A stretch of DNA of 32,000 nt from Alkanindiges illinoisensis DSM 15370. Lineage in GTDB: Bacteria; Pseudomonadota; Gammaproteobacteria; Pseudomonadales; Moraxellaceae. Of this stretch, positions 203 through 30,484 are shown one piece after another; positions within the stretch are counted from its first letter, which is position 1, and each line of letters opens with the position of its first letter. Both the position numbers and the translations under genes were made by a program. The stretch spans positions 610,064 through 642,063 of the forward strand of contig NZ_JHUX01000003.1 of assembly GCF_000619845.1 (NCBI RefSeq), given 5' to 3'. The notes under the pieces are model-generated. The model had not been told where the DNA came from. It did not search any database and saw nothing but the letters and a program-made list of their open reading frames with translations.

Positions 203-1975
203 ATGACCGTTTTAAGTGCAGAAATCGAAAAGGCGTATAAAGAGCAGCAGGATCAAATTGCTCAGTGCGCGAATTATTACTATGGTGGCTTTAATGCAAC
301 TGAAATTGCTCAGTTTGACAGTATTGCCATTGCCCCTGAATCACGTCCAGACCTGGTAAAAAGCCTGTTTGATTCGATTGGTGAAGAAGGTCAGGCTAAT
401 ATTGATAATGCAGTGCGCTGGGGTGTTGAACAATATCAAGCGCGTAATGGCGGCCAATTGCCTCATCCGTCAGTCATTGCCAGTGCGTTAGGTGCAGGCC
501 TGCAAGCAAGCACAATTAACCCTGAAAACTTAAGCAAAGCGATTGCTGGTTTCGATAGTATCAGTAACCTGCAATATGAGCAGGCCAGTATCGTGCCAGC
601 ATTGACCGTAGCGACCATTGCAAACGTCATTGCCTATGCATTGCCTATTTTTGCGCTGATTCCCAACAATAATCAGTCAGTTAAAGTGCCATTGGTGGCC
701 ATGCGCTTTATTACTGATACGGCGTTTGGTGCAATGGGTGCAGGTGAATATCTGGACGGCGAAAATGCCGCAAAACCCTATGCTGAAGGCCGCTTCCGCT
801 TTGCAATGGCTAAAGGCGCTGGTAATACTTACAGCGTAGTTGCCCATACCTGCTATGACGACTTTAAAGCCAAAACTCCAGACACCGCTACGCCGTTGCT
901 GCCATTCTGGTCAGGTCTGGTATCTGTAAAAATCAATGGCATGGAAGTAGGTCATACCCGTGATGACCGCCTGCTGTCTGTTGATAAAGGCCAGATTAGC
1001 CTGATTCCAAACCAGAAGGGCGTAAAAGTTGGTAACACAGTTTACAAACTCACTGGCAGCACTATCAATCTGGATACCAGCTCTATTAGTGTGACACTTG
1101 ATGGGGCACTGCCTGCTGGTGCTTCTATCGAAGTGGCCTTGGTTGCCAATTTTGAAGCCCGTGACGCTAACAAGAAATTCAAGCTCAATCCGGTTGGTGT
1201 GAGCGTTGAAGCGGAATATGACTCACTGGTGGCTGCGCCATTTGCCATGCGTGTTAATGCGTCATACAGCACACAAAGCCAGCTGGCCAATGAATTAAAC
1301 CTGGGCTTTGTGGGTGCTGCATTATCAATTATGCAAGGTAAGTTCTTTTTGGAACAAACCATTCGATTGCTCAAAGAAGTGAAAGAACGCGCTGTTTTAA
1401 ATGGTCGTGGCTACTTTGATATGTCGCGTGGTGTAACTGGTAATTTGTCTGCCGTTGCCAATACCACCGGTGATTTGTTTGCCGAAGTGCTCAAAGTCAT
1501 TAAGAAAGGTAAGCGTCGTATCCGCCGTGCTTCAGGTGGCGCAACTACCAGCTTTGACCTGTACGTGGGCGACAACGGTGAAATCTTCTTCACTACGCTG
1601 TCTGCTGATAAGTTCACACCGACTGGTGTCAGCTCAACGTATGGCGAAATTGTGCGTATCGGTACGCTGGCTGATGGCACCGATGTTTATCACACGCCTA
1701 ATGCGCAGGGTGTTATTGAAGAGTCTGACGACAATAAGACCTTTGAAATGCTGCTGATTGGTAAAGGGAATGAGCCAGTGCGCAACCCATTGGTTGGTCA
1801 TATCCCTAACCCGCCTGTGGTACGTGAAGCGTTTGCCGATACCCGTGAGTTGGTGATGGATATTCACGGCAAAATGGCTGCGGAATTGAACCCGCTGGAA
1901 CGCTACGCTGACCAGTGTGCGGTGCTACAAGTGGTTAATGCACCAGCCATTCCATTTGACCCACCAGCCAAGTAA
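203..1975 (+). CDS. Major capsid protein (gp23-like / HK97-fold) with ~120-aa N-terminal propeptide
   Basis: ATG at 203 is preceded by AAAGGTGA. The protein is 590 aa. Segments such as 'AMRVNASYSTQSQLANELNLGFVGAALSIMQGKFFLEQTIRLLKEV' and 'FEMLLIGKGNEPVRNPLVGHIPNPP' follow the pattern I know from gp23-type capsid proteins (R.l.A.ys.e..qdl....g.d.e..l...l..ei..ei; lliG.kG......g...P). The gene is flanked by strong terminators, as expected for a highly expressed gene. The ORF-track start at 71 is rejected. Confidence 0.75.
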   Translation: MTVLSAEIEKAYKEQQDQIAQCANYYYGGFNATEIAQFDSIAIAPESRPDLVKSLFDSIGEEGQANIDNAVRWGVEQYQARNGGQLPHPSVIASALGAGLQASTINPENLSKAIAGFDSISNLQYEQASIVPALTVATIANVIAYALPIFALIPNNNQSVKVPLVAMRFITDTAFGAMGAGEYLDGENAAKPYAEGRFRFAMAKGAGNTYSVVAHTCYDDFKAKTPDTATPLLPFWSGLVSVKINGMEVGHTRDDRLLSVDKGQISLIPNQKGVKVGNTVYKLTGSTINLDTSSISVTLDGALPAGASIEVALVANFEARDANKKFKLNPVGVSVEAEYDSLVAAPFAMRVNASYSTQSQLANELNLGFVGAALSIMQGKFFLEQTIRLLKEVKERAVLNGRGYFDMSRGVTGNLSAVANTTGDLFAEVLKVIKKGKRRIRRASGGATTSFDLYVGDNGEIFFTTLSADKFTPTGVSSTYGEIVRIGTLADGTDVYHTPNAQGVIEESDDNKTFEMLLIGKGNEPVRNPLVGHIPNPPVVREAFADTRELVMDIHGKMAAELNPLERYADQCAVLQVVNAPAIPFDPPAK

Positions 1976-5169: not shown

Positions 5170-5961
5170 ATGATTTTTGGACATAAACGTAAAACCCCGG
5201 TGCCAGCGCTGATTGTGCCTGGCTTTGATTCTGTAGCCGTGGCGATTAGCCAGGCTGCAACCCTGACTGCCAGTGAACAACGTGAGCAGCAATCATTTAT
5301 TGAGCATGTGCGTGAACAGGCGCTGCATATCGTGTCGCATATGGCTGATACGATTATTGAAGGCAAACTAGAAGAAGGCGAGCTGCCCACTGACCTGCTG
5401 GACGGCCTGATGATCGAGGCACTGGATGGACTGGACGACGACGATAGCGACATTGAAGGCGCATTGGCCGGGTCCATTCAAGATGCATTGTCGTCTTTCG
5501 ACGTGGATGATTCTGTCATCAATGAAATGTTCGGTGATAATGTCACTGCTGCCGATGCTGCGATTGAAGCTGCTGCTGCAACCATTATCGCGAATATGCC
5601 CGATGAAGGTGAACCACTGGATGAATTTGCCCGTGAATTCATCTTCGGTGAGCCAGATGACATTGAGGAGGGGTTTGACTCTATCAGTGGTAAGCGCTTG
5701 ACTAAGGCACAGACTAAAGCCAAAGTCGGGGCGTTCTCGCATAAAAAAGTGGGTGGCCGTAAGGTTGCTTATAAAGGGGTACTGGCCATTCGTAAAGGCA
5801 TCAAAACCATTGTGAACAAGCGACTGCCTGGGCAGAAAATCCGTCAATCTGCTGACCAGAAACAGGCGATTAAAAAAGCCCGCCTGAAAGCACACACGGC
5901 TAATTCCATTCGCCAGCGTGTGAAATCGTTTAAGAAAGGTCGCAAGATGGGTTTGTATTAA
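5170..5961 (+). CDS. Acidic/basic internal-protein-like virion protein (leader - acidic region - basic tail)
   Basis: GGAG lies upstream of the ATG. The protein has a ~20-aa leader ending in GFDSV, a strongly acidic middle (LDGLDDDDSDIEG, EPDDIEEG), a second GFDSI, and then ~90 aa with 29 K/R and one acidic residue (my count). Confidence 0.6.
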   Translation: MIFGHKRKTPVPALIVPGFDSVAVAISQAATLTASEQREQQSFIEHVREQALHIVSHMADTIIEGKLEEGELPTDLLDGLMIEALDGLDDDDSDIEGALAGSIQDALSSFDVDDSVINEMFGDNVTAADAAIEAAAATIIANMPDEGEPLDEFAREFIFGEPDDIEEGFDSISGKRLTKAQTKAKVGAFSHKKVGGRKVAYKGVLAIRKGIKTIVNKRLPGQKIRQSADQKQAIKKARLKAHTANSIRQRVKSFKKGRKMGLY

Positions 5962-6614: not shown

Positions 6615-7148
6615 ATGGCTGGTTTAAACCTTGCGACATTAACCAATAAAGATGCATATATTGAAAAAATCCGTGCCGCACTGGAAACCGCAACCGGGCA
6701 ACAAATCCCGGCGGGTACCGTAGAGGTAGGGAAAGTCAAACGGGTGAGTGGGGTAAGCGCGGCACCTGTTACCTTTGCATTTGCTGGTGGTCAGTCATTG
6801 ACCCTTTATGTACGTGCGACTGCCGATGTATTTAAGGCTGAACTCAATGGCAAGGTCATCGTCCTGTCCGGTGATTTCAGTAACGACTGGAAACAAACCT
6901 TTGACGCTGCTGTGACTGGTGTGGCCAAGCTGGTACGTGATGGCCAAAAGGCGAAACAGGCAGAAAATGCACGTCAAAAAGTTAAAATTCCGCGTGCACC
7001 CAGCCAAAGCGTTACGGCAAAAATCAAGGAAGTGCAAGAACAGGAAGCCCAGCTTGATCAGCGTATCACTGAAAAAACTGCCCAGCGTGACCAGTTAAAA
7101 GAAAAACTGGAACAGGCCCGCGCGCAAATTGCAGCAGTGACCCAGTAA
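6615..7148 (+). CDS. Hypothetical protein; paralogue of the central domain of ORF 18114-20063, with a C-terminal coiled coil
   Basis: Shared blocks with 18114-20063: 'Y[IL]EK', 'V.V.K..KR..V...VT[FY]..A.GQS[LV]T[LI]' and 'QRIT[ED]KTA'. The tail is Q/E/K/A-rich. Confidence 0.6.
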   Translation: MAGLNLATLTNKDAYIEKIRAALETATGQQIPAGTVEVGKVKRVSGVSAAPVTFAFAGGQSLTLYVRATADVFKAELNGKVIVLSGDFSNDWKQTFDAAVTGVAKLVRDGQKAKQAENARQKVKIPRAPSQSVTAKIKEVQEQEAQLDQRITEKTAQRDQLKEKLEQARAQIAAVTQ

Positions 7149-12430: not shown

Positions 12431-12437
12431 GAACGAT

Positions 12438-15212: not shown

Positions 15213-15229
15213 TTTAATTCTTTATCCAG

Positions 15230-15243: not shown

Positions 15244-15262
15244 TAAATCTTAGGACAACAAA

Positions 15263-15808: not shown

Positions 15809-15838
15809 GCCTTAAATTGGTGAATTTTGGCAACAAGA

Positions 15839-17461
15839 ATGGCAGTTTCAGATGTTTTAGCAATCTTGCTCGGTGCAGGCTCCGCTGCTTCAGCACCGTC
15901 GCCTATCGTCGGGGCAGCTCAAGAAAGTATGGCGCATATGTATGACGCCGCTGCGCCATTTTCGCTAGGCACCCATCAAACCAAAAATAATAAGAAACGT
16001 ACCCGCAAGGAAATCATGACCAAATGGGAGCAAATGCTTAAGTTTGCCCCTATTGCTGAAAGTATGGGAATCCATAGCACCGCTGCACTGGGTGGTGATG
16101 AGCACACCAGCCAGCAAGTATTCATTAAGCCTGCTGAACGCCTGCAAAAAGCCGACAACCCTGTTTTAAAAGCACAGCTTGCCAAACTTGAAAAACGTAT
16201 CAAGCCGATGGAGCGGCTGATCAATCAGCATATTCTTAAACTGTGTTTTGATGCCTGCGGCTTTGGCGATTCCTATGCCCGTGTATATGGGAAAAAAGGC
16301 ATTGGCGTCGTGGATATGATGTGTAACGAATACACCTATCCACCGCTGGTTTTACCGTTTGAGCAGGGTAGTAAAACGCTGGTCTATCATTTGTTGGACG
16401 CCCGAAACTGGACGAATACCAGTTCAAAATTAGGGGCGCGACAAATGATCCGCATGAAAATGCCGCGGATTCTGCACGTTCCCCAGCATGAAATCATTGA
16501 AGGCGTGCTTGTTGCCAAGATGATGGAAGAGGACGACCCGGACAATTTGCCGCTTTTCCCAGCGCATGTGGGTGGCTCATTTTTAATTGCCATTGAAGAA
16601 ATTTTTGACAATGTGATTCGTGCGCTAGCGGCAATGAATACACAGCAGGTTGCTGATGCAGTCAACCAGATGTTTTTAACCATGAACATGGCCGGTATGC
16701 CACCGGCACAGCGTGAAGCCTACAAGCAAGGGCTTGAAGGCATGTTACGTGAGCATGAACAGTTTGTTAAGAATGCATTAGATGGCGGCGAAGCACTTTA
16801 CACCACGAAATACCACGTATTGCCAACATGGGATGAAAAGCAAATTTTAAACCCGATTGGCGATATCAAGGGCCAGCGTAGTACAGCCATTAATATTGAA
16901 ACTTTTATGATTGACGTACGCTTGCTTATGGGGGGCCTTGGTCTGGACCCGTCCATGGTAGGCTGGGCTGATATGTTATCCGGTGGAATAGGTGATGGTT
17001 CCGCGTCCCTGACGTATTCAAGCCAGGTGATGCGCCGTTCCATGATGATACGGCAGTCCTCAAGCCAAATGGTTAATGACTTGCTTAAAATTGACTGGGG
17101 CTATGCCTATAACGAAGATTTTGACAATGAACTGGATTATCCATGGCAAGTGGTCTTTCATTCTGATCAGACTGCAGCAGCCAATGAAATCCAGACGACC
17201 AAGCAAACCCGCATGAATACATTGCTGATTAAGACGCAGGTCATTACCGCGATTAAAGACGCAGGGCTTAATGAAGAAAATACCGCACTACTGTTAGAGC
17301 GTGACGGGGGGATGGATTACGACGAAGCCCAGAATCTGGCTAAAGATATTACCAGCGCCCGGGAAAAAGCCTTAGAGGATGGCCAAAATCCCAATGGCAA
17401 TCCACAGGATGACAACTTAAATCCTGAACCAGAAAATGACGACGAAGAGGACGGCATTTAA
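15839..17461 (+). CDS. Portal protein
   Basis: ~540 aa. The N-terminal region 'TRKEIMTKWEQMLKFAPIAESMGIHSTAAL' resembles the portal pattern seen in T4 gp20 (TReli..y..l......n.a...i..dai). The C-terminus is highly acidic (PEPENDDEEDGI). The track start is TTG 15827. ATG 15839 is preferred because it restores the 26-30 nt box-to-start spacing seen at the other copies. Confidence 0.65.
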   Translation: MAVSDVLAILLGAGSAASAPSPIVGAAQESMAHMYDAAAPFSLGTHQTKNNKKRTRKEIMTKWEQMLKFAPIAESMGIHSTAALGGDEHTSQQVFIKPAERLQKADNPVLKAQLAKLEKRIKPMERLINQHILKLCFDACGFGDSYARVYGKKGIGVVDMMCNEYTYPPLVLPFEQGSKTLVYHLLDARNWTNTSSKLGARQMIRMKMPRILHVPQHEIIEGVLVAKMMEEDDPDNLPLFPAHVGGSFLIAIEEIFDNVIRALAAMNTQQVADAVNQMFLTMNMAGMPPAQREAYKQGLEGMLREHEQFVKNALDGGEALYTTKYHVLPTWDEKQILNPIGDIKGQRSTAINIETFMIDVRLLMGGLGLDPSMVGWADMLSGGIGDGSASLTYSSQVMRRSMMIRQSSSQMVNDLLKIDWGYAYNEDFDNELDYPWQVVFHSDQTAAANEIQTTKQTRMNTLLIKTQVITAIKDAGLNEENTALLLERDGGMDYDEAQNLAKDITSAREKALEDGQNPNGNPQDDNLNPEPENDDEEDGI

Positions 17462-18113: not shown

Positions 18114-20063
18114 ATGCGCCGGAATATCGATATTTTCACCCAGACTCATGCACCGCATTCCAGCCGGTTTGTGGCAGGTTTTGATTCCATTAACAGCGGG
18201 TCCTGTGCAGTAGGTTTTATTGCTGGCCAATATCGCCGTATCCCGGCGCTTGTGGCTGAAACAGCGACCGATGATGACCAATGGCGAGTTGTTAATCTAA
18301 AAGGCGGTAAGGGCAATGAAGCGCATTTTGATGCGATTGCGGTACTGGGCGCGGTAGATGATCAACAGGCAGCTGATATGACGTTAATGCAGTTTGGCCG
18401 CCTATTTGATTCTGTGGCTATGGATGTGCTGACAACCAATACCAATGGCCTAATGCGCCATTTAGATACCAGCCACTACCACGCTAAACCCAGCACCATT
18501 GCCCCATGGCAACTTAAGGCCATGCAGGACGTGATTTGTGCTGAAAAACCTATGTGGGATGACATCAATCTGGTATCCCATAAAGGCCAAACCGCCAATT
18601 TGCTGCTGGATATGCAACGCCATGATGACCACGATGGGTTGTTATCCCAGTTTGACGGATTGCCAAATTTGCTTGAGCAGCTTGGCGTTGAAGAGCCGGG
18701 CTTTGATGCGCTCATTGTGCAGTATCAATATCTTGAAAAGCTGACCGCACAATTGCATACCGCTATGAAAAATGCGGGCAAGGCTGGTGTGCAAGTGGTG
18801 AATGTCACCGTTAGCAAGCCATTCAAGCGTAACAAAGTGGCGCAAGTTGCGGTGACTTACGATATGGCAGACGGCCAGAGCGTCACGATTCTCTTTCACA
18901 ACCCTGACAGCACACCGTCCAAACTGGCGCCAGCTGATACGCTCATTTCATGGAAAATCCAGATGAATAACCGTGATATTACTGGCGCTATTCAACCGAA
19001 CCAGGGTGAAGGTATTGCCTTACCAGTGCTGGCTGGCCGTATTCTAAAACTGGTCAATCAGAATAGTGACCGGTTTAAGCGCTACCAGGTTAAAAAAACA
19101 GAGCAGGCGCAGGCTTTGGCGGATGCCGAACAGCGTATCACTGATAAAACCGCCCTCGATAAAGCGCTGGACGACGAAATGACTGATTTACAGCAACAGA
19201 TTGATGCAGCCCATGAGCAGGCCAAGCAACAGCAGGAACTGGCTCAGCAAAATAGCGAAGTTCTTAAGGGGCTTATGGCTGATATTGCAGCAACTGCTGA
19301 TCTGGGTGAAGCCACTACCAAAAATTACTTCTTTAAAGAAAAAGAGGTGGATGGCACCAAGTTTCATTTGTCAGTAGACCCATTTGGTGATGGCCTGACG
19401 GTTTGTTTATCAATCATGCCTGCCACTGGCGGCGAGCAGACAGAAGAACAGGCCTTTACGCTAGAACAACTGCAAAACGGTGGTTTTGAGGAAGCTAAGG
19501 CCTATCTAAAAACACTGGATGAAAAGTTTAATCAGGCCGTGGTTGAGGATGATTCGATTCCTGCTGAAGATATTCAGTTTGTGAGAGATATCGAGGCAGG
19601 CACGGTAGACGGTCTGGCCGAAGATAATTTCAAGCGCTTATATGGTATTGCTCAGGAAACCAAAAACAATGGGGATGAGGAAACCGAAGGCGCAGCAGTT
19701 AGTGCTGCAACGGTGATGGCCGAGAAACTTAAACCTGTTGCAACTGAAAAAGGTATCTCGCTTGAGCGCCTAAATACCGCGATTGATGATGAAGATGTAC
19801 TGGAAATCCTAGATTCCATTGAAGCCTTGCAAGCTGCCCTTAATGCAGCACCTGAACCTGAGCCTGAACCAGCTGCTAACCCGGATCAGGAGTTTCTGCA
19901 AAACATCATTGCAGGCACTGTGGACGCCACAACTGTTGATATGGATCACATCATAGAACTGGGCGAGAAGTACCCAGACGATGCAGCATTCAATGCATTG
20001 TATGAGCAGGCTCTCAATGCGATTAACAAGGCTGAGCAAGAAGCCGCCAAGAGTTTGGGTTAA
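18114..20063 (+). CDS. Large acidic coiled-coil protein; candidate packaged accessory protein (DarA-like in size and position, unverified)
   Basis: 649 aa. A GFDSI motif sits 22 aa from the N-terminus, like the leader of 5170-5961. The central domain is paralogous to 6615-7148. It also has a Q/E/A coiled coil, a PEPEPEP linker, and two copies of a [QE]F[VL]..I.AGTVD module. There is no SD, but the start is supported by the box-to-ATG spacing. Confidence 0.6.
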   Translation: MRRNIDIFTQTHAPHSSRFVAGFDSINSGSCAVGFIAGQYRRIPALVAETATDDDQWRVVNLKGGKGNEAHFDAIAVLGAVDDQQAADMTLMQFGRLFDSVAMDVLTTNTNGLMRHLDTSHYHAKPSTIAPWQLKAMQDVICAEKPMWDDINLVSHKGQTANLLLDMQRHDDHDGLLSQFDGLPNLLEQLGVEEPGFDALIVQYQYLEKLTAQLHTAMKNAGKAGVQVVNVTVSKPFKRNKVAQVAVTYDMADGQSVTILFHNPDSTPSKLAPADTLISWKIQMNNRDITGAIQPNQGEGIALPVLAGRILKLVNQNSDRFKRYQVKKTEQAQALADAEQRITDKTALDKALDDEMTDLQQQIDAAHEQAKQQQELAQQNSEVLKGLMADIAATADLGEATTKNYFFKEKEVDGTKFHLSVDPFGDGLTVCLSIMPATGGEQTEEQAFTLEQLQNGGFEEAKAYLKTLDEKFNQAVVEDDSIPAEDIQFVRDIEAGTVDGLAEDNFKRLYGIAQETKNNGDEETEGAAVSAATVMAEKLKPVATEKGISLERLNTAIDDEDVLEILDSIEALQAALNAAPEPEPEPAANPDQEFLQNIIAGTVDATTVDMDHIIELGEKYPDDAAFNALYEQALNAINKAEQEAAKSLG

Positions 20064-20075: not shown

Positions 20076-20420
20076 ATGTTGACTGCATTAGAAAAAGCCA
20101 AAGCCCTTAAAGAGTTTAGAGAATTGCGCCTTAAACTGGCTGGTGATGGATTAACCGCGCTGGACAAGGCCAAATCGTTAAAGCGCTTTCGTGAATTGCG
20201 TTTGTTGCTGGGTGGACAGAATCAACCAGAAGCACAGGAACCCGCCAATAATCCGCTGTACCAGTCCATTCTGGAAGGCCGGGAAGTCACACTAGAATTG
20301 CTGGAGCAGGTCAAGGCAGAGGCCGAAAAAGACTTGAACCATCCACAGCTGATTCCCGCTGTTCTTAAACTTAAAGAGCAGGTTGAACCATTACAGGTGC
20401 ATCAGAGTGAGGCGGCTTAA
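20076..20420 (+). CDS. Small helical protein with an internal 24-aa tandem duplication
   Basis: GGGGG lies upstream. LTALEKAKALKEFRELRLKLAG (aa 2-23) and LTALDKAKSLKRFRELRLLLGG (aa 26-47). Its stop abuts the ATG of the next gene. Confidence 0.65.
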   Translation: MLTALEKAKALKEFRELRLKLAGDGLTALDKAKSLKRFRELRLLLGGQNQPEAQEPANNPLYQSILEGREVTLELLEQVKAEAEKDLNHPQLIPAVLKLKEQVEPLQVHQSEAA

Positions 20421-23400
20421 ATGGTGTCGAAAACGGATAAAACCGCCTTAAATCAAATTGACGTCGTTGCAAATCCCATTGCAGCGATTGATGCGATGAT
20501 TGATGCGCTTAAGCACCAGCAGCACGAAAACTACGAGTTTTTAACGGGTGAACCGGTTGCATCCATCCAGTCCGGCCAGATTAAGCCTGATGAGAAGGGT
20601 CATTACATCAAGGCGGCTGTTAACTGGTTTAGGGAGTGGATGGACAAAAATAGCCATGGGCAGGAATTTGAAAATGTGCAGCTAGGAACAATCATTATTG
20701 CGCCTAGTGGCATTAAATCAGCCATGAGTCATAAACCCCACCCAATTGATGTTCAGGCGCTACCGGCCTTGCCTTTGATTATTGAAAAAGCTGTTGTTCT
20801 CAGTAGAACAATGGATGATATGGGCAAACCATTAGAAAATATTGTGGTCGCGGCACCCATCGAAATTGACGCCAAAAAATATTATATGGTTGTTCGTTTA
20901 AGACGGCACACTGAAGATAAAAACGATAGACCCCGCTTTTATACGCAAGCGGTTACTATTGCAGAGGACATAAAAAAAGGACACATCCCTTCAGACCAAG
21001 TGACTGGGCAAAATAAATTGCTTACTCAAAATGGAGGACGTGTCCGTTTATTAAATGTACTGTATAGCGCTCTCAGTGTCAATAATCCAGCGACCAGCAT
21101 TGTTACAGGCCGTACAAACACTGTAAAAACCCCAAAAGGCACCAAACTTGATACGGTTTTTGCACTGGTTGAAGCTGACAATGTAATTGCATCACACGAT
21201 AGCACTGGCGGGACTAATCCTAAATTTCCGCAAGAATTGCAGCCGCGTGACCGTAGCCGCGAAGCCAGCCAGACATGGGTGAAAAAAACAGCGGCCAATC
21301 TGGATCCTGATAGTCTGGGTAAAACCAGCCGTGCAGACACCGGTGCGCCGATTGTTGGTGATGACTTGATTGTTGAATCCGGGAACGGTCGCACCATGGC
21401 GATTCAATTAGCGTACGCACGTGGTACCGCAGAGGAATACCGCGCTTGGCTGGTTGATGAGGCAGAATACTTTGGATTTAAGCCTGAACAGGTTGAAGCC
21501 TTTAAGCAGCCTGTACTGGTGCGTATCCGTAAAACTGAGATTGACCGTGCCGCATTTGCAGTAGAAGCGAACCAGGATGATAAGCTGTCTTTGAGTGCCA
21601 CGGAACGCGCCAAGGCCGATGCTCGCCGTATTGATGACAATATGGCGATGCTATTTAACCCAAGCGAAGATGGGGATTTACTGGCGGCCAGTAACCAGAA
21701 ATTTATACAGGCTTTTTTACAGTCCATTGGTGATACCGAAGCTGCTCAGTATATTGGAACCGATGGCAAGCCAACGCAGGCACTAGTTTTACGCATTAAA
21801 GCAGCGGTATTTAGCAAGGCTTATAAGGATGACCGTCTTTTAGAGATGGTGGCAGACCAGACCAAGCCAGACTTAAAAAATATGCTGAATGCATTAAGTG
21901 TTGCGGCGCCCAAGTTTATTGAGGCCCAAGCCATTAGCCGGTTACAAACCGAAGATTTATCCAGTCAAATTGTTGATGGTATTGAAAGTGCCACTGACCA
22001 AAAGGTTATTGATGCGATTATTGCCGCTGCAAACGTGGTGATGACCGCAAAAAATGACAACCATGACGTGACCGAGTTTGTTAAGCAGCAAGGCCTGTTT
22101 GGTGATTTACCGGATGGTGTGGCAGAGCTGGCCGTATTCCTATCCAAAAATGCCAGCAGTGCCAAAAAGATGAGTCTGTTATTCAAAGCTATGGCCAGCT
22201 TTTTGGAAAAACAGGCAATTGACCAGAGTAACAATAGCCTGTTTGGTGATCCTGAGCCGCTGAGCATGCGAGAGGTCATTCAGCATGCTGTTGGTGTACT
22301 TGAGCAAGAATATGGCGATAAAGCCAATTTAAGCATGTTTGATGATTTAGGCTTTCTAGAGCCTAAGTTATTTGACCAGATTTTTAAGTCCTACGCCCGC
22401 ACTGGGGAATGGACACCAACAAAATATCTGGAGCAAATGGATGCGTTGCGTCGTATTTTCTTTGCAAACGGCTGGGGACGTGAAAGACGTACTAACGGCT
22501 TCATGATCAAGCCTTGTGGTGAACGCAAAGTACGTCTTATTAAATATGCCGATGATGATAAATTTTTTGTCAGCATCGTTGATTTAGATGAAAAATTAAT
22601 CACTGAAATTGTAGGTTGTGATAATAAGGCCATTCCTGAAATCATTGCTGAAATTAATAAATATCTTAATGAAGATCAGCAACTATCATTAGAAAAGTCT
22701 GGCTTTGATTCGGTTGATGGCAATGATCAGATTGCTATGGTGCCTAAGGTTGATGCTAGCAATACATGGATGAATGGGCAAATCATTCCATGGTCAGAAA
22801 ATCCTGAGACTGATTTTGCGCATTCCATGAAATTGCCATCTTCCGGTCAGCTTGGTGATAAGGTTTGTTTTCATGTCTGGGCAAATGAAAGTAAAGAGTC
22901 AAGGGTGAGAATAGATGCATTTATTGCAGATATTAAGTTTAAGACCAGTAAAGTATGGTATGGACTGGCCATGCGCATTGCTGATACGCGATTTGCGACA
23001 CTGATTTACTTACCTAGTGGGACTTTTGATATTTTAACCAGTCATGAAAGTGTAGACGGTTATGATGCCTTACTCACCATGGAAGAGATATGTCGGCATA
23101 ACTGTTTGCGTACTGATATTGATAAGCAAGCCCATGAAGCCGCCACGTCACCTTACAATGATTTGCCAGAGCCGACTGAAGCACAAAAAATTTCAGGGGA
23201 TTATGTGAAGGGCAAGCTATCAATTGCGGGTGTAGATATAGCGATTGAAAATCCGGCTGGTTCTACACGCTCAGGCGTTGACGCCAGTGGAAAGGCTTGG
23301 CAAACCACGATGAAGCATCACTATGGCTACATTGAAAATACCATGGGTGCCGATGGTGATGAGCTGGATGTATTTGTTAAAACTGGTTTGAATGAATATA

Positions 23401-24005
23401 CCGGCATTGTGTATGTCATCCGCCAGCTTGATCCAGAAAGCCTAGATTTTGATGAACACAAGATCATTATTGGCGCGTCTACATTAGAAGAAGCCCAGCA
23501 AATTTATTTGTCTAATTATGAATCGGGCTGGCAGGGGATGGGCAGTATTGAAACGCTATCCATTGAAGATTTTAGGAACAGGCTGGGTAAGACCTGGACG
23601 CAGTTTGATTCGATTGGCCAGCACGTTGAGCCAATCACTGTTCTGAATCAGCTTATTGGCATCTTGCAGGCCAAAAAAATCACTGACCAGCAGCAGTTAA
23701 TGGAACTGCGCGAGGAAATTCGCACCAATGAGCAGACCGCCCGTTATTTGATGGGTGGCCGTAAGGGATTGTGGGGCCGCACAACCAATGCGGACAATAA
23801 ACGCAGTGCTGAATTGTCAAATTTACGCCTGAAATACCAGCTGGCACTGAATCATTTTATTGCCCTGTATTCCATTGACAAGCGGGAAGCCCGTACCTTT
23901 AATTTACGCCATGGCGTCAATTCTTTTGATTCCATCGAAAATGACCAGATACACCCAGTATTTCATGCGATTTATGGGCATGGAAACCACTGGAACAGCG
24001 CATAA
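20421..24005 (+). CDS. Polyvalent protein: unknown N-terminal domain + ParB/DdrB-like domain + helical region + pyrophosphatase-signature domain
   Basis: 1,194 aa. ParB-superfamily motifs are 'ELQPRDRSR' and 'VESGNGRTMAIQLAY' (GxxR box). 'DGDELDV' at 23352-23372 fits the family-I PPase signature D-[SGDN]-D-[PE]-[LIVMF]-D-[LIVMGAC] as I recall it. Three FDS[IV] motifs separate the segments. Confidence 0.7.
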   Translation: MVSKTDKTALNQIDVVANPIAAIDAMIDALKHQQHENYEFLTGEPVASIQSGQIKPDEKGHYIKAAVNWFREWMDKNSHGQEFENVQLGTIIIAPSGIKSAMSHKPHPIDVQALPALPLIIEKAVVLSRTMDDMGKPLENIVVAAPIEIDAKKYYMVVRLRRHTEDKNDRPRFYTQAVTIAEDIKKGHIPSDQVTGQNKLLTQNGGRVRLLNVLYSALSVNNPATSIVTGRTNTVKTPKGTKLDTVFALVEADNVIASHDSTGGTNPKFPQELQPRDRSREASQTWVKKTAANLDPDSLGKTSRADTGAPIVGDDLIVESGNGRTMAIQLAYARGTAEEYRAWLVDEAEYFGFKPEQVEAFKQPVLVRIRKTEIDRAAFAVEANQDDKLSLSATERAKADARRIDDNMAMLFNPSEDGDLLAASNQKFIQAFLQSIGDTEAAQYIGTDGKPTQALVLRIKAAVFSKAYKDDRLLEMVADQTKPDLKNMLNALSVAAPKFIEAQAISRLQTEDLSSQIVDGIESATDQKVIDAIIAAANVVMTAKNDNHDVTEFVKQQGLFGDLPDGVAELAVFLSKNASSAKKMSLLFKAMASFLEKQAIDQSNNSLFGDPEPLSMREVIQHAVGVLEQEYGDKANLSMFDDLGFLEPKLFDQIFKSYARTGEWTPTKYLEQMDALRRIFFANGWGRERRTNGFMIKPCGERKVRLIKYADDDKFFVSIVDLDEKLITEIVGCDNKAIPEIIAEINKYLNEDQQLSLEKSGFDSVDGNDQIAMVPKVDASNTWMNGQIIPWSENPETDFAHSMKLPSSGQLGDKVCFHVWANESKESRVRIDAFIADIKFKTSKVWYGLAMRIADTRFATLIYLPSGTFDILTSHESVDGYDALLTMEEICRHNCLRTDIDKQAHEAATSPYNDLPEPTEAQKISGDYVKGKLSIAGVDIAIENPAGSTRSGVDASGKAWQTTMKHHYGYIENTMGADGDELDVFVKTGLNEYTGIVYVIRQLDPESLDFDEHKIIIGASTLEEAQQIYLSNYESGWQGMGSIETLSIEDFRNRLGKTWTQFDSIGQHVEPITVLNQLIGILQAKKITDQQQLMELREEIRTNEQTARYLMGGRKGLWGRTTNADNKRSAELSNLRLKYQLALNHFIALYSIDKREARTFNLRHGVNSFDSIENDQIHPVFHAIYGHGNHWNSA
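21141..21640 (+). other. ParB-superfamily (DdrB-type) domain within 20421-24005
   Basis: 'FALVEADNVIASHD...FPQELQPRDRSREASQ...GAPIVGDDLIVESGNGRTMAIQLAY...PVLVRIRK...RAAFAVEANQDDKLSLSATERAKADA'. The boundaries are approximate. Confidence 0.55.
23163..23570 (+). other. Inorganic-pyrophosphatase-like domain within 20421-24005
   Basis: 'LPEPTEAQKISGDYVKGKLSIAGVDIAIENPAGSTRSG...HYGYIENTMGADGDELDVFV'. The sequence block resembles one that I recall in phage/ICE polyvalent proteins. The boundaries are approximate. Confidence 0.5.
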
Positions 24006-24067: not shown

Positions 24068-27000
24068 ATGTCTGCGGTGGTTAATTTAAGTCAATTTGTG
24101 GTTACACCCTTAACTGTAATGACTGCTATTGATGCAATGATAGCGGTCTTACAGCAAGCGAATGGTCAGCATATCCCGCTGTATCAGTTTAGCGAAAAGA
24201 TAACGCCTGCTGCCCGCCAGCGTGCCAACAATGAGGCAGTTGCATTACTGCGGGCTGTCCAAAATGACGATGTAAAGCAACTTACACCAGAACAAAAACT
24301 CATTTTATCCCGCTATACCGGCACGGGTGGCAACCTGATTGGCGAAGATGGCTTAAAGGGCAGTGCGTACGAGTACTACACACCAATGCCAGTGGCACAA
24401 GCCATGTGGGACCTATTAAAAGAACAGGGCTTTGCTGGTGGGAACGTATTAGACCCCAGCTCAGGCACTGGTATTTTTGCTGGTTGCGCCCCTGCCGATA
24501 TCCTCATGCACAGTGTTGAACTCTCTGATATATCCGGCAATATCAATAAACTGGTCAATGATAGTGATAAGCATGCAACCACAGTGGCCCCGTTTGAACA
24601 GGTCGCGGCCAGCACTGATGATGAAATTTTTGATGCAGTCATTACCAATGTGCCGTTTGGCACCAATGCCGACCGTGGCAAAAACAAGAACCTGGACAAT
24701 AAATATCAGCGTGACACGCTGGAAGAATATTTTATTAAGCGGTCGCTGGATAAATTGCGTCCCAATGGTTTAGCCGCCTTTATCGTTCCTACCAAAATTT
24801 TAGACAACAGCAGCTTTAAAAAGTTTCGTCAGCTGATTTTATTGCGTGCCGATCTAGTCGGCGCTTACCGCCTGCCCAATAAAGTGTTTGACGCCACTGG
24901 AGCAGATGTCACGACCGATATCATTATTCTTAAAAAATTTAACCAGGATGTCAGCGAGAAAATCACCAACCTGTATGAAAACGGTGGACTGCAAACCCTG
25001 CAAGCCGCACGGGTGCTAGATACCGATATTGTGGCCGGGCATTACTTTAAAACCTATGGCAAGTCTTACGTGCTGGGTGAAACCGTCAAGGGCAAAGGCC
25101 GTTTTGGTGAAGTGGAACGGGTAGTTAATGATGATTCATTGGCCAATATCCTAAAACTGGTGAAGCGTTTTCCTGAATCACGTATTGACTATAACTTGCT
25201 GGAAGTTACCCCCGAATTGACCGAAATTACTTTTAATGACGGTGATATTCGCCGTATCGATGGCGCCACATTCCAGATGAAAAACGGCGAGTGGCAACAG
25301 GTGATTGAACGCTTTAACGTGGATGAATCCTTATTTGCAACGCCATACGCTTTATTGTCTGGCAAAGGGGATTATCCAAAGCTGGTTGAATATGTTGCTT
25401 ATTGCGCGGCCAATGCCAAGCGTCCGCCAGAATGGCTATCTATCTTTACACAAGAGGTCGAAAAGAACGCCGCTACATTTGGCTTCTGGTTATGTGTGTT
25501 GTCAGTACTGGATGCCCTAAAAACTGATAATGGCACATTTCCCTATGCAGAGCGCTATTCGGCACTAACCGCGCAAATGGTCGGTTATGCAGATGCCTAC
25601 CTTAAAAAACGCTACAAACCCAAAAATCAGGATTATAAACGCTATCTGCACACCATCAGCATTGCCTTTGATAGCAACATGCCTGATGGTATTTCACGAT
25701 TCTGGCGCGGTGATACCAGTCAACTGGCAGCCGTACAGCCACTGCATACCCAAGCTGCTTATGAAAATGCGGTGTACCGAGGTATTGCAGAAAACTGGCA
25801 AGTCGATGTAGCTGTCATTCAGCAAAGCAATCCTGATTTTGACCCAATGACTGATGACAATTACTGTATCAATCAGGATGGCAGCAAAGTCACGTTAAAG
25901 CGCGACTATTATGTTGGCAACTATCAGCAGTTTTTAACCCGGATTAACAGCCAGATTGACGCAGCAACGGATCCTGTCATTAAGGAAAAACTGATTCGGC
26001 AGAAACTGGCCGCTGATGCCATGATTCAGGCAATCGATGTTTGTAAGCTCAACTATGACCTAATGGCCAGCACCATACCGATTGAAATCAAGTATCGCTA
26101 CTTTTCAGAATTTATTGATGACAAGGTACTGATTGATGCAGACCATCGGCTAGTTTTGGATGAAAAACCGGATTCTGTTATTGATCTGGTCAAATACCGT
26201 TTAAGCGGCAGTAAGGCACTGGAAACCGGCAAGATGGATGAGGGCAATAAGGCGCTGCGCTACTTTATGCTCAACCGGATTTTTAACTCCATCAACAACA
26301 ACCAGCGTCTTTATGTGAAAACTGAGGACAACATCAACAAGGATACCAAAGCCAAGCTGCTTAAAATCCTGACCGATTATTACAATACCTTGAATGTCAG
26401 TTTTGATGCCTGGTTGAAATCCAATGATGAGTTCATGGCCCAGTTGGATCAGCAATTTAATGCCCCTGAAAACAAGGTTTTTCCGGTGCAACTGGATGAT
26501 TCACCATTAACGATTGATGGCTTTAATCCCAAAAGAGAAGGTTTTATAGCATTAAACGGCTACCAGAATGAGGAAATTCGCCGGCTGTCACGCCATTTTG
26601 CGGGTATGTGTGGTTTTGACGTGGGGCTGGGTAAAACCCTAACCGCGCTGGCTGCCATGCAGAATATGCATAATATTGGCATTAAAACCCGTACGTTTGT
26701 AGTGGTTCCCAACCATACCATCAGTAAGTGGTTTAACGATGTCAAAATGGCTTATGACTACGTAGACGATGTGCTGGTGATTGGCAGTAATCAGGGTAAA
26801 CAGGACGCCGTAGACTCCAAGTTTAATGCAGCAGATTTTGCAGCACTGACCAAGCCGGAAGGGAAGCATTATCGAAAAATCCTGATGACCGTGGATGCAT
26901 TCAATATGATTCCGCTGCGTCAGGCGACCATTGAAACCCATTTTTACCAGACTGAAGGTATTGCCACCGACCGCAAGCAGGACCGCGAAAAGCAGGACGG

Positions 27001-30000
27001 TGATTTAAGTAACCGCATCAAGAAAATCAACAAGTATGAAAGCAAGTTGCCCTATTTTGAGGATATGGGCGTTGATTCACTGGTATTTGATGAAGCCCAG
27101 CTATTCAAGAATGGCAAGGCTGGCGGCGGCCAATATGACCGTATCAAAGGCCTGTCATTGCTGGCCGAGAGTGCTTTATCGGCGCGTGCAATCAGCGCGG
27201 CCATTAAATCCTGGTATATCCGTGGCCGTAACGGTGAATTGAATGATGGCGTAGTCTTGCTGACTGCAACGCCATTTACTAACTCGCCGGTTGAGATTCT
27301 AACCATGCTGTCACTGGCAGTCGGTGATAAGGAAGCCATGCGCGAACTGGCGGGTACTTCCATTGCCAGCGTTGATGATTTCTTAAGTACCTTTGCCAAT
27401 ATTGACCAGATTGAGCAGGAAAATATTGTCGGTGATCTGGTATCAGTTGATACTTTTACGGGCTTTAAAAACGTGCAGTTATTGAAGGATGGCATTCACA
27501 AGATTGCTAATATCCAGACCGCCCGGGAGCGTGGCCTTAAAATTCCTGATGAAGAAAATCATACCGTGGTCATTGACCTGGTGGATGACGACAAGGCAAC
27601 CCTAAACCAGATGAAAGGGTTTTATGCACTGGCCAAGGAAATGATTAACGGCGGTGGTGTGATTGCCGATAAAGATACCTTTGAGGCCTATGAAGCCTAT
27701 AAGGAAATGCTTGGTGAAACGGATGAGCTACTGGCTCACCCGTTCAACCTGATTGCCCGCATGTCTGATGTGATCATGGCCGGTAGTGAAATGGGCCTCA
27801 TGCGTATTGTACCCGTTGATTTTGCCCCTGATCAGCTGGAAGCCGCGCGCAAATTGGCTGACCAGTTTAATGCCAAGAAAATCAGCATTAAGACAACCCG
27901 CCGTTTTCCGGGCGTTGATAGCGAACTAATGACAGTCAAAATGATACAGGACAATCAAGGCGAGCTAATGCCACAGTTTACTATAGGCTGCCGTGTTGAT
28001 CTGGATGATCATAATTCGCGGTTAATCCTAAATGTGGATGATGCTGGCGTCGTCGCGCAGCTGATGGAAATGATTGATAAGGCAGGCCTACAGGTCCAGC
28101 CCAAGCTATCAGCTAAAGTTTCTGCCATGGTTGAAAACTATAAGGTTGAGCAGAGTACGCCAAAGCATCAGGGCCATGCCAAACAGCTTATTTTCTGCGA
28201 CAACCTGGCGATGCAGCATGTAATCAAGCGGGCATTGGTTGCTTACTGTGGGGTGAAATCCAGCCAGATTGCCATTATCAATGCGCAAACTCTACCAGAT
28301 GGCAGCAAGGGCAGTCCTGATACAGAGCACATGCAGGAAGTGCAGGACAAGTTTGCCAGCAATGAGTTTACAACCGTCATTGCCAATAAAAAGGCTGAAA
28401 CCGGTATTGATTTGCAGATTGGTACACAGGCCATCCACCACTTAACAACGGGCTGGACACCAGACAGCTTACAGCAGCGTAATGGCCGTGGCGTACGTCA
28501 GGGCAATAAGCAGTCCAGCGTGGCAATTTACCATTACAATGCCAATGGCACCTTTGATGAGTATAAGCAGCGCCTGATTGCTGGCAAGGCTGACTGGATT
28601 GACCAGTTGATGCAAAAGGATTCTGTTGTATCTGGAACCCTGAATGTGAGCCAGGAACTCAGTAAACAGGACTATGAGGACCTGATTAATGCTGATAGCC
28701 CTGAACAAATTGCTGCACTATTGCAGGCAAAATCTATTCGGGAACAGGCCGAGCGTGCTGCACTGGTTGCCTCCAGAACCCGCTTGCTATATGACAACAT
28801 GATCAAGGCCAAGAAACGCCCTAAACCCAGCATTGAAGGGCAAGTACGTCAGATTATGGAGGTCGATGCCAAACGGCTAGGGGAACTGATCAAGAAGCGC
28901 GACAAGGCGGCCAAGCCTGAGGTTATTCAGCGTTACACCGACCAGATCAACCAGATTGCCCAGCGCTATGATGGCTGGTTCGATGGTGAGCTGACCAGTG
29001 ATATGGTGATTAAGGGCATTGAGCGAAAACGGCAATATAACCGTAGCCCAAGTTTTAGTGAATATGATATTTACCGTGAAATGCGGACTGGAAGCCATGA
29101 AATGTCACGCTGGATCCAGACCAATGCCGACACCCTGACCAATGATGTATTTAACCGTGCCCGTAGTGTGGTGAGCACAGCAGATAACATGATTCGTGCC
29201 ACTGAAGAATCATTCTTGAATTATCAGGATAATGGTTTTAGTGAGGCTGATAAACAGGCCATTTTAACCGGAGAGGCCGTTTTAGATGATTTGGGCGTGC
29301 TTTGGTATGCAGGCGAGTACGTTAAGGCCATTAAAGAAAATGGCAAAACCGTTTATGGCTATGTGAAGATTGCTGAACTTAGTGATTATGGCTTTAAATT
29401 TGGTTTTATCGGTAAGGAAATCGGTAGAACTGATACCTGCCAGAAACTAAGCCCGGATGATAAGGCCGCTGCCATTGAATATATGGTGGCCGAGGATATG
29501 GCCGAGTGTAACACCAAAGAAATTTTTGATATCAGTGTTGCTAAGCCATTTTACGCCAGTGTTTTTCCAGAAATTTACACCATTTTGGCGGAACGTCTGG
29601 CCGGTGCGCTTCAAGAATGGAATGAGCGGACTACCCAGTATTTTGCCCGCAATCTGGTGCACCGTGCGACTAAGCGGCGCTATTGGGCTGAAGAGTTTTT
29701 ACCAGAGCTAAGGTATGATAATCCCGATATTGTTAAATCTTATAACCTGGTATTTGATATTGAGGCATTTGAAGTTAATCCGCTCAATCGCAGGCCTATG
29801 GCGGTAATCCGTAATAAGAACCTAAGGCTTTATCAAAACATCCCAATAACCCATGCCTCAGATTCTGAATTTTTTGAAAATGAACTGCTGCCTTATCTGG
29901 AAGGTGAGGCTATAGAAGTAAAAATGGATGTAGACACAGCATTTAATTTATTGAAAAAACTGCTAGGAACATCACGCCTGTTTGATATGGCATTAACCCG

Positions 30001-30484
30001 GGCCGGTTTTACCACGGCTGAATTTCAACAGTTGTATGTTGACGGGATTAGTAAGGCTGATATTCCGCAATATGTTAAAAAAGCAATTGATCAGGAAATT
30101 GGGCACGTCATCAATAACCTTGATGAAGTGGTTGGCTGGTTTATGGTGAGCGAGGGTTATAGACATATCCGGCAACGGATTAAAATCCTGCCCGAACCAG
30201 GTGCACCTGAAGCAGCGGCGGCTGATCTGATGGAGCAGGCCAAGCGGGTAGCGATTAAAAATACCAAGGATGTACCCGTCATTGGCTTAAAATCAGTGGT
30301 GATCGGCAGGGATGGTAATAAGCTGTATGAAAACAAGGAATCATTAAAGGCTACGGTGGACTATGCCTACTGGGCAAAACGTCCAAGTATGTGGATTATT
30401 GACCTGGAATCGTTTGCCAAGCTGATTCAACAGCCGTGGTACGATTCAACCCAGATTGAAATTGTTGAGGCAAAATACAGATGA
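24068..30484 (+). CDS. Giant N6-adenine DNA methyltransferase + SF2 (SNF2/DEAH-like) helicase fusion, P1 DarB-like
   Basis: 2,138 aa; GAGG lies upstream. MTase motif I is VLDPSSGTG (24446-24472) and motif IV is ITNVPFG (24641-24661). The helicase Walker A is GLGKT (26624-26638), with DEAQ (27089-27100), LLTATP (~27257-27274) and motif VI QQRNGRGVRQG (28472-28504). Confidence 0.8.
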   Translation: MSAVVNLSQFVVTPLTVMTAIDAMIAVLQQANGQHIPLYQFSEKITPAARQRANNEAVALLRAVQNDDVKQLTPEQKLILSRYTGTGGNLIGEDGLKGSAYEYYTPMPVAQAMWDLLKEQGFAGGNVLDPSSGTGIFAGCAPADILMHSVELSDISGNINKLVNDSDKHATTVAPFEQVAASTDDEIFDAVITNVPFGTNADRGKNKNLDNKYQRDTLEEYFIKRSLDKLRPNGLAAFIVPTKILDNSSFKKFRQLILLRADLVGAYRLPNKVFDATGADVTTDIIILKKFNQDVSEKITNLYENGGLQTLQAARVLDTDIVAGHYFKTYGKSYVLGETVKGKGRFGEVERVVNDDSLANILKLVKRFPESRIDYNLLEVTPELTEITFNDGDIRRIDGATFQMKNGEWQQVIERFNVDESLFATPYALLSGKGDYPKLVEYVAYCAANAKRPPEWLSIFTQEVEKNAATFGFWLCVLSVLDALKTDNGTFPYAERYSALTAQMVGYADAYLKKRYKPKNQDYKRYLHTISIAFDSNMPDGISRFWRGDTSQLAAVQPLHTQAAYENAVYRGIAENWQVDVAVIQQSNPDFDPMTDDNYCINQDGSKVTLKRDYYVGNYQQFLTRINSQIDAATDPVIKEKLIRQKLAADAMIQAIDVCKLNYDLMASTIPIEIKYRYFSEFIDDKVLIDADHRLVLDEKPDSVIDLVKYRLSGSKALETGKMDEGNKALRYFMLNRIFNSINNNQRLYVKTEDNINKDTKAKLLKILTDYYNTLNVSFDAWLKSNDEFMAQLDQQFNAPENKVFPVQLDDSPLTIDGFNPKREGFIALNGYQNEEIRRLSRHFAGMCGFDVGLGKTLTALAAMQNMHNIGIKTRTFVVVPNHTISKWFNDVKMAYDYVDDVLVIGSNQGKQDAVDSKFNAADFAALTKPEGKHYRKILMTVDAFNMIPLRQATIETHFYQTEGIATDRKQDREKQDGDLSNRIKKINKYESKLPYFEDMGVDSLVFDEAQLFKNGKAGGGQYDRIKGLSLLAESALSARAISAAIKSWYIRGRNGELNDGVVLLTATPFTNSPVEILTMLSLAVGDKEAMRELAGTSIASVDDFLSTFANIDQIEQENIVGDLVSVDTFTGFKNVQLLKDGIHKIANIQTARERGLKIPDEENHTVVIDLVDDDKATLNQMKGFYALAKEMINGGGVIADKDTFEAYEAYKEMLGETDELLAHPFNLIARMSDVIMAGSEMGLMRIVPVDFAPDQLEAARKLADQFNAKKISIKTTRRFPGVDSELMTVKMIQDNQGELMPQFTIGCRVDLDDHNSRLILNVDDAGVVAQLMEMIDKAGLQVQPKLSAKVSAMVENYKVEQSTPKHQGHAKQLIFCDNLAMQHVIKRALVAYCGVKSSQIAIINAQTLPDGSKGSPDTEHMQEVQDKFASNEFTTVIANKKAETGIDLQIGTQAIHHLTTGWTPDSLQQRNGRGVRQGNKQSSVAIYHYNANGTFDEYKQRLIAGKADWIDQLMQKDSVVSGTLNVSQELSKQDYEDLINADSPEQIAALLQAKSIREQAERAALVASRTRLLYDNMIKAKKRPKPSIEGQVRQIMEVDAKRLGELIKKRDKAAKPEVIQRYTDQINQIAQRYDGWFDGELTSDMVIKGIERKRQYNRSPSFSEYDIYREMRTGSHEMSRWIQTNADTLTNDVFNRARSVVSTADNMIRATEESFLNYQDNGFSEADKQAILTGEAVLDDLGVLWYAGEYVKAIKENGKTVYGYVKIAELSDYGFKFGFIGKEIGRTDTCQKLSPDDKAAAIEYMVAEDMAECNTKEIFDISVAKPFYASVFPEIYTILAERLAGALQEWNERTTQYFARNLVHRATKRRYWAEEFLPELRYDNPDIVKSYNLVFDIEAFEVNPLNRRPMAVIRNKNLRLYQNIPITHASDSEFFENELLPYLEGEAIEVKMDVDTAFNLLKKLLGTSRLFDMALTRAGFTTAEFQQLYVDGISKADIPQYVKKAIDQEIGHVINNLDEVVGWFMVSEGYRHIRQRIKILPEPGAPEAAAADLMEQAKRVAIKNTKDVPVIGLKSVVIGRDGNKLYENKESLKATVDYAYWAKRPSMWIIDLESFAKLIQQPWYDSTQIEIVEAKYR
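24305..24940 (+). other. SAM-dependent N6-adenine methyltransferase domain
   Basis: 'YYTPMPVAQAMWDLL...VLDPSSGTGIFA...DAVITNVPFG...NGLAAFIVP'. The order of motif I then motif IV, with the NxPF catalytic variant, is typical of amino-MTases. The boundaries are approximate. Confidence 0.7.
26552..28600 (+). other. SF2 helicase core (two RecA-like lobes separated by a ~280-aa insert)
   Basis: N-lobe ~26552-27337 (GLGKT, DEAQ, TATP). C-lobe ~28181-28600 (KQLIFCDN..., TGIDLQ, QQRNGRGVRQG). Confidence 0.7.

Follow-up and report, generated by a model that had tools for sequence, protein, structure and literature searches.

Gene content of the locus

We analyzed a 32-kb window (32,000 nucleotides of contig NZ_JHUX01000003.1, positions 610,064 to 642,063), which is the late-gene region of a P1-related myophage and encodes a large polyvalent, DdrB-like head protein whose possible proteolytic processing is the subject of this work. 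The element probably represents a prophage integrated in Alkanindiges illinoisensis (Moraxellaceae), since its 1194-amino-acid (aa) polyvalent protein is identical to a protein of this species on a 1.78-Mb contig at NCBI, where it is annotated as 'LPD3 domain-containing protein'. The 26 open reading frame (ORF) products of the window total 10,075 aa, and all genes of interest lie on the + strand. Acinetobacter phage vB_AbaM_ABMM1 (ABMM1) is the closest sequenced phage, and a megablast search of GenBank returned no near-identical one.

The late genes include a set homologous to the head maturation and Dar cargo genes of P1. Along with the polyvalent protein, which supplies the DdrB-type ParB domain, this set comprises the major capsid protein of the P1 gp23 family (203..1975, phrog_1014), a 263-aa P1 gp21-like protein (5170..5961, phrog_1053), an Hdf-like protein (6615..7148, phrog_1620), and a DarA homolog (18114..20063), with a DarA_N domain at aa 197-318 (E = 4.7e-28). 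It also includes a 2138-aa DarB-like protein (24068..30484), a neighboring head cargo protein with N6_Mtase and SNF2 helicase domains. The P1 Dar set is therefore represented by homologs of Hdf, DarA, DdrB, and DarB, with the polyvalent gene (20421..24005) flanked by the DarA and DarB-like genes. Pfam and PHROG matches also identified a portal gene (15827..17461, phrog_1497) and tail sheath, tube, and baseplate genes.

The polyvalent protein (133.1 kDa) contains the Pfam domains LPD3 (aa 64-167), ddrB-ParB (aa 239-371), and InPase (aa 920-1054; 23178..23582; E = 1.5e-46), and its residues 230-630 share 41.7% identity with P1 DdrB. Foldseek comparison of an AlphaFold2 model matched the InPase region to bacterial pyrophosphatases, with the fold of family I inorganic pyrophosphatases. 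With at least two effector-type domains in one polypeptide and a late, head-associated context, the protein has the hallmarks of a polyvalent protein. It is built from domains described for this class by Iyer et al. (LPD3, ddrB-ParB, and InPase; PMC5512222) and is predicted to be delivered with the DNA. A Pfam scan (E <= 0.01) detected no peptidase family in the polyvalent protein, and the fold search with its model returned no protease-like match.

Translation of 20421-24005 placed three FDS[IV] motifs exactly where the initial annotation had reported them, at aa 762-765 (site 1, G-FDSV, 22704..22715), aa 1062-1065 (site 2, Q-FDSI, 23604..23615), and aa 1169-1172 (site 3, S-FDSI, 23925..23936). 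The predicted cuts, marked here and below by a slash, are D763/S764, D1063/S1064, and D1170/S1171.

FDS[IV] motifs are enriched in and confined to head-associated proteins

Whereas amino acid composition predicts 0.198 occurrences of FDS[IV] across the window's ORF products, we counted 10 (Poisson P = 2e-14); no more than 3 arose in any of 2000 within-protein shuffles. No tripeptide in the window was more over-represented than FDS, with 12 copies compared to 1.5 expected. The polyvalent protein by itself has three sites, compared to 0.028 expected (P = 3.5e-6).

The 10 sites were confined to four proteins, all of which are head-associated: the capsid protein (3), DarA (2), the gp21-like protein (2), and the polyvalent protein (3). 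There was no FDS[IV] site in the reverse frames or in 13 upstream non-head proteins (3122 aa), and neither the Hdf-like nor the portal protein has an FDS site. The sheath (FDST) and DarB-like (FDSN) proteins have only a polar residue after the Ser, and no FDS[IV]. The codons used for Phe, Asp, Ser, and Ile/Val vary among the ten sites (for Ser: AGT, TCG, TCT, and TCC), so selection acts on the peptide rather than the DNA. A DNA-level motif or recombination site was rejected on these grounds.

The same enrichment was observed in relatives. In 120 homologs, mostly from Acinetobacter prophages, we counted 172 FDS[IV] motifs compared to 3.35 expected, and 39 compared to 0.96 in a set of 34 dereplicated homologs. 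In the dereplicated set, Phe, Asp, and Ser were each enriched approximately 41-fold at their positions, the residue after Ser followed the order I > V > A > L, Gly or Met was favored before Phe, and Asp or Glu was favored after the motif. The complete ABMM1 proteome (84 proteins, 22,993 aa) has nine FDS[AIVM] sites, and all nine are in the capsid protein or the gp21-like, DarA, Hdf-like, and Pro homologs. The other five FDS sites of ABMM1 are followed by a polar residue and are all in other proteins.

The motifs mark module boundaries of the polyvalent protein

The initial annotation placed the motifs at inferred domain boundaries, and Pfam, AlphaFold2, and BLASTP breakpoints bore this out. 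In the AlphaFold2 model, built with 54 homologs (mean predicted local distance difference test score (pLDDT) 68.9), confident domains at residues 667-761 and ~890-1063 are followed by low-confidence segments at 762-848 and 1064-1076, respectively. The first of these is a small alpha/beta domain (22419..22703, pLDDT 85-94) with no match to a Pfam family, which ends at site 1, so that the motif follows it directly. Site 2 lies 8 residues past the end of InPase. Site 3 falls within the low-confidence C-terminal region (1148-1194), at the junction between a basic helical segment and a His-rich tail. A degenerate junction, FDDL (aa 640-643, within SMFDDL at 638-643; 22338..22349), lies at the end of the ParB-helical module, within another low-confidence segment (634-666).

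These features refine the proposed division of the protein into four pieces. The scheme is too simple, given the additional degenerate junction. The first piece (aa 1-763) does contain the ParB-like domain and helical region, but it consists of several modules: LPD3, ddrB-ParB with the helical region, and the alpha/beta domain. The second piece holds the pyrophosphatase as described, including DGDELDV at aa 978-984, with ~130 poorly modeled residues (766-889) preceding the fold. The last two pieces are a basic helical segment (aa 1064-1170, isoelectric point (pI) 9.9) and a His-rich tail of 24 aa. If cut after Asp, the 133.1-kDa chain would yield fragments with computed masses of 84.6, 33.4, 12.4, and 2.7 kDa.

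Comparison with homologs gave similar boundaries. BLASTP segment ends from 119 homologs clustered at residues 640-650 (100 segments) and 1060-1064 (64 segments), and homology to relatives stopped at ...FDS. None of 24 FDS[IV] sites in ten proteins with mapped domains lay inside a Pfam domain. The sites instead recurred 43-58 aa before ddrB-ParB, ~30-50 aa before InPase, and 7 aa after InPase, where homologs read TWSEFDS[IV]. Across about 100 homologs the motif sits at module boundaries, and in the dereplicated set it always falls between modules. Site 3 is kept in homologs P0002 and P0003. At the ParB-module junction, the same alignment columns read SMFDDL in the window, SMFDSI in homolog P0012, QMYDSL in ABMM1, GLFESV in P1, and SMFEPT followed by a stop in phage D6. 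The D6 DdrB protein ends at this junction (SMFEPTSVG, stop), and the downstream genes are separate there. In many homologs, InPase is followed by FDS[IV] and then by only 12-37 residues. This arrangement hints at a possible loading role for the C-terminal tail, which would be removed afterwards.

Because homology segments end at ...FDS, the motif appears to travel with the upstream module, and module shuffling is rampant in the polyvalent family. FDS[IV] could therefore be a structural end-cap or linker inherited through shuffling, with no signaling role. However, the flanking residues are unrelated between junction types (SKAGFDSIESYD, NLSMFDSIDSLT, TWSEFDSI, and SLAAFDSIGSEL), which argues that the core is not one inherited linker, and codon usage differs from site to site. 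The motif is also found in the unrelated capsid, DarA, gp21-like, and Pro proteins, and FES occupies the same positions in the P1/D6 lineage. We consider an inherited end-cap very improbable.

Comparison of motif positions with processing sites of P1 head proteins

We compared the sites in the other head proteins with known processing events in P1. The longest capsid ORF begins at GTG 71 (71-1975), but all homologs start at ATG 203 (MTVLS...), making the latter the probable true start. Numbered from ATG 203, which encodes M45, the capsid FDSI sites are at aa 38, 56, and 117 (nucleotides (nt) 314-325, 368-379, and 551-562). All three are within the N-terminal 118 aa, in agreement with the earlier proposal that the polyvalent protein carries the same signal as the capsid propeptide. 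The predicted mature capsid protein has 472 aa (50.6 kDa).

The window capsid protein and P1 gp23 match a single profile, phrog_1014, over their full lengths. P1 gp23 is cut between E120 and S121 (AMLE/SVAAEM), as determined by Edman sequencing (PMC9024508). In a three-sequence alignment, the third window site, AGFDSIS, aligned column for column with P1 AMLESVA, while in a 53-sequence alignment it was 8 residues from the P1 cut. In the window protein the site is 13 residues from the conserved 'VP' of the N-arm, compared to 16 in P1. The D6 capsid protein reads AMFE/SVAQS at the position of the P1 cut, so the P1 lineage also uses Phe there.

DarA carries FDSI at aa 23 (nt 18180-18191) and FDSV at aa 98 (nt 18405-18416), together with the Ser-to-Ala variants FDAI at 72 and FDAL at 197. 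In both the window and ABMM1 proteins, the FD[SA] sites (23, 72, 98, and 197) lie upstream of DarA_N. P1 DarA loses ~9 kDa from its N-terminus, and its residues 1-69 are invisible by cryo-electron microscopy (PMC9024508, PMC12810830). P1 Hdf, whose homolog in the window lacks the motif, was reported as unprocessed (PMC12810830).

The gp21-like protein has FDSV at aa 19 (nt 5224-5235) and FDSI at aa 169 (nt 5674-5685), both of which are kept in ABMM1, as FDSA and FDSM. Cutting at these sites is predicted to release an acidic 150-aa core (pI 4.05) and a 93-aa tail (pI 12). P1 gp21 carries the annotation 'baseplate or tail tube', and the study of the P1 virion proteome (PMC9024508) does not mention it in its main text. 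The gp21-like protein is more suggestive of an internal, scaffold, or procapsid core protein than of a tail component.

The residue before the presumed scissile bond covaries with phage lineage

ABMM1 gp84 is a homolog of P1 Pro (phrog_4727; phrog_1801, E = 5.6e-25), with which it shares GxYGH and AGG[FW]S motifs, and its gene is just upstream of the terminase genes. It was found in the last part of the ABMM1 genome via PHROGs; tblastn and phmmer detected no Pro homolog in the first 50 kb. P1 Pro itself matches the T4 gp21 prohead protease with 99.4% HHpred probability (PMC9024508 supplement).

At four substrate positions, the residue preceding the presumed scissile bond is Glu in P1 and D6 and Asp in the Moraxellaceae lineage. 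In the capsid protein, LESV (P1) and FESV (D6) correspond to FDSI in the window. At the DarA N-terminus, P1 has DLLEAIS at 67 and D6 has AMFESIT at 64, compared to FDS[IV] in the window. The end of the DdrB ParB module reads LFESV in P1 and MFEPT in D6, compared to MFDSI in the Moraxellaceae lineage. Lastly, Pro itself contains GMFESAD at 169 in P1 and LMLESAE at 170 in D6, compared to CFDSAT at 180 in ABMM1. Additional Pro sites are SFDSV at 263 in ABMM1 gp84 and LFESL at 294 in P1. The use of Glu by the enterobacterial lineage and of Asp by the Moraxellaceae lineage in every substrate is what would be expected from co-evolution of the substrates with one protease.

P1 DdrB (locus L002, 24542-27529, minus strand) carries LFE/SV at aa 440-444, in the junction whose counterpart is SMFDSI. 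Iyer et al. cite processing of P1 DdrB to 76 kDa (PMC5512222). Cutting at IE708/AS would give an N-terminal fragment of 77.2 kDa, and cutting at FE442/SV one of 47.9 kDa (computed masses). The 77.2-kDa value is near the cited mass, and both E708 and E442 are candidate sites for this processing.

The motif might act without being cut in the polyvalent protein, as a docking or targeting signal that recruits cargo through the procapsid interior, the scaffolding domain, or the protease, with only the capsid and DarA copies processed. Targeting of P1 DarB is by a short signal at the N-terminus that is not known to be cleaved off (PMC9024508), the 12-37-residue tails of many homologs would fit a terminal anchoring peptide, and several copies per protein would raise avidity. 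Against this, the same four residues lie at or beside the mapped cut in a homologous capsid protein, and the protease homolog carries the motif at positions typical of self-processing. The Glu/Asp covariation concerns the very residue before the scissile bond, and the polyvalent sites are in exposed linkers, where a protease that recognized them would be expected to cut. We therefore view docking without cleavage as unlikely.

A model for processing of the polyvalent protein by a prohead protease

The motif is present in the polyvalent protein, enriched, restricted to head proteins, located at module boundaries, conserved, and covarying with lineage. We propose, with a probability of roughly 0.62, that FD/S[IV] is a prohead-protease site and that the polyvalent protein is a polyprotein predicted to be cut in trans. 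Comparative evidence supports this reading of FD/S well at the level of sequence. By analogy with E120/S121 of P1, the scissile bond would follow the Asp. We infer the enzyme, the timing, and the actual cutting at the three polyvalent sites. The interpretation offered by the initial annotation was supported, as every element of it that could be tested by computation held. The idea of polyvalent processing can now be stated precisely, in terms of specific bonds (D763/S764, D1063/S1064, and D1170/S1171), fragment sizes, and a likely enzyme.

According to this model, the polyvalent protein would be loaded into the procapsid as a single 133-kDa precursor. A protease of the P1 Pro/T4 gp21 type, cutting after an acidic residue in this Moraxellaceae lineage of P1-related phages, would become active and chop the N-terminal scaffolding-like domain of the capsid protein at its three sites, trimming DarA and the gp21-like protein alongside. 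It would also cut the exposed linkers between modules of the polyvalent protein, yielding an LPD3-ParB piece of ~85 kDa, the pyrophosphatase at 33 kDa, a basic helical piece of 12 kDa, and a tail of 2.7 kDa. The largest of these could be split again at the degenerate FDDL. Once freed, the effectors would leave the head together with the DNA at ejection. The motif would thus serve as a standard delimiter between exchangeable modules, making an embedded peptidase unnecessary.

Several observations weigh against processing by a prohead protease. The window capsid protein aligns with P1 gp23 at ~22% identity. Depending on the alignment used, the register at the cut moves by as many as 8 residues. 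Many capsid homologs have FDD[VI] rather than FDS[IV] at the third site, so Ser is not a strict requirement just after the cut. The window polyvalent protein lacks sites that its homologs carry around the ParB module. In P1, five of seven matches to the relaxed motif [FLM]ES[VIAL] are in head proteins, which make up 41% of residues in the half of the proteome scanned; this confinement is not significant, the pattern being too degenerate. The ABMM1 paper gives gel-band identifications without band sizes or termini. Of 14 prohead-protease cuts mapped in SPN3US, 13 remove N-terminal propeptides, with no separation of retained domains (PMC10052503).

The protease gene is a further difficulty. The element appears chromosomally integrated and, unlike P1, has no pro gene after the portal gene; tblastn, phmmer, and PHROGs detected no Pro-like gene in either the window or the 10 kb flanking it upstream. 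A scan of genome contigs with the ABMM1 Pro homolog identified one locus, in Acinetobacter and not in Alkanindiges. We considered the ORF in the P1 pro position (17461-18039) as a candidate protease and rejected it because of its tail-tube fold: an AlphaFold2 model analyzed with Foldseek matched T4 5iv5_BG and P1 Tub 9ay5_A (E ~2e-6). BLASTP detected no match between this ORF and P1 Pro, and Pfam and PDB sequence searches gave nothing useful.

The absence of a protease gene from the window would also be accommodated if the sites were cut by a host protease, or by a phage enzyme after ejection, releasing the effectors in the newly infected cell. Processing after injection was considered for polyvalent proteins by Iyer et al. 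(PMC5512222), and Pro was put forward in the original annotation of P1 as a possible activator of a host protease. However, the polyvalent protein shares its motif with the capsid propeptide, whose removal must occur inside the procapsid. The syntenic ABMM1 has a Pro homolog that itself bears the motif, and the fold of P1 Pro resembles that of T4 gp21. Cutting by a host or post-ejection enzyme is accordingly improbable in our assessment.

Trans-cleavage by the prohead protease, the reading we favor, departs from the published view of how polyvalent proteins are processed. For their separation into individual units, Iyer et al. invoke chiefly embedded zincin-like metallopeptidases and, in rarer cases, an assemblin-like domain at the C-terminus (PMC5512222). 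Whereas proteins of this family commonly, though not universally, embed a metallopeptidase, the window protein has no peptidase domain and carries the presumed motif of a trans-acting capsid-maturation protease as a delimiter. The enzyme suggested here is accordingly the capsid-maturation protease acting in trans. The window protein has LPD3 and InPase modules and three strict sites, while P1 DdrB has a C-terminal metallopeptidase instead. The residue before the cut also differs, being Asp in the window lineage and Glu in P1.

The proposed arrangement resembles T4 gp21, phiKZ gp175, and SPN3US gp245, in each of which one protease with a short, acidic-ending motif processes the capsid protein, itself, and several packaged proteins. 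The consensus for cleavage is L/I-x-E in T4 and A/S/G-x-E in phiKZ and SPN3US. SPN3US gp245 cleaves C-terminal to its three-residue motif, with Ser favored just after (PMC10052503). F-D/S-[IV] would differ in having specificity on both sides of the cut and in lying between retained catalytic modules, whereas the cuts in giant phages mostly remove N-terminal propeptides. Viral polyproteins, which carry several enzymes per chain separated by a repeated short linker site, provide an analogy only; here the enzyme would be a tailed-phage capsid-maturation protease and the products packaged cargo, not replication proteins. In the literature searched, we found no description of the FD/S motif or of prohead-protease delimiters between polyvalent modules.

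A broader generalization is more tentative, and we would give it slightly less than an even chance. Polyvalent anti-defense proteins of P1-related phages may be true polyproteins, in which a lineage-specific delimiter (FD/S[IV] here; [LF]E/S[V] in P1/D6) lets modules be swapped, packaged as one chain, and released separately, with the protease and its delimiters co-evolving as one 'syntax'. The prohead-protease reading predicts sites in P1 itself, at LFE/SV of DdrB (440-444, with cutting after E442 exposing SVSGGSYNGVAPYTSLLLHR) and at LLE/AI of DarA (66-70, giving A69 as the N-terminus). It would also provide a rule for designing cargo that is loaded into, and released within, P1-type capsids, and would help to annotate propeptides and head cargo across the numerous Acinetobacter prophages with these genes.

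Other features of the locus

The tail-tube-like ORF 17461-18039 belongs to phrog_7274 and is a third tube-like gene, beside ORF 10386-11036. In the DdrA position, ORF 20076-20420 (114 aa) resembles the C-terminal 60 aa of ABMM1 DarA (51% identity) and covers positions 587-646 of phrog_8883; it is unlike P1 DdrA. ORF 30481-30942, in an Ulx-like position, had no family match in Pfam or PHROGs. PDB sequence searches with ORFs 1995-2588, 2572-3426, and 5170-5961 returned no match.

The prophage may be rearranged or defective around 12818-15775. ORF 15263-15775 (170 aa) matches only the first 140 aa of a 3451-aa giant protein of ABMM1 (56% identity), the remainder of whose gene is absent from the window. 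The two ORFs that precede it (12818-15212; 495 and 304 aa) matched no Pfam or PHROG family, and the window contains no gene of tape-measure size.

Two small ORFs, 3562-3849 and 12384-12818, are paralogous (66% identity). Both match the N-terminal ~90 positions of phrog_5283, a family of unknown function, and weakly match the start of the tail-sheath profile phrog_1036. One of them is directly upstream of the sheath gene, the product of which aligns only from profile position 116, and the arrangement is the same in ABMM1. A minus-strand ORF (9897-10280, 127 aa) lies within the otherwise + strand late block; at a comparable place, ABMM1 has anti-repressor and toxin-antitoxin genes.

In the upstream flank (L004, 2243-3657), a ThsB-like TIR gene and a ThsA-like Macro gene form a Thoeris-type defense pair, positioned between the prophage terminase and tail-fiber genes. 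In the downstream flank (L005, 13212-15152), UmuC-like and UmuD-like (Peptidase_S24) genes adjoin the lysis cassette, and Umu-like genes are likewise found beside the lysis cassette in ABMM1 and P1 (humD).

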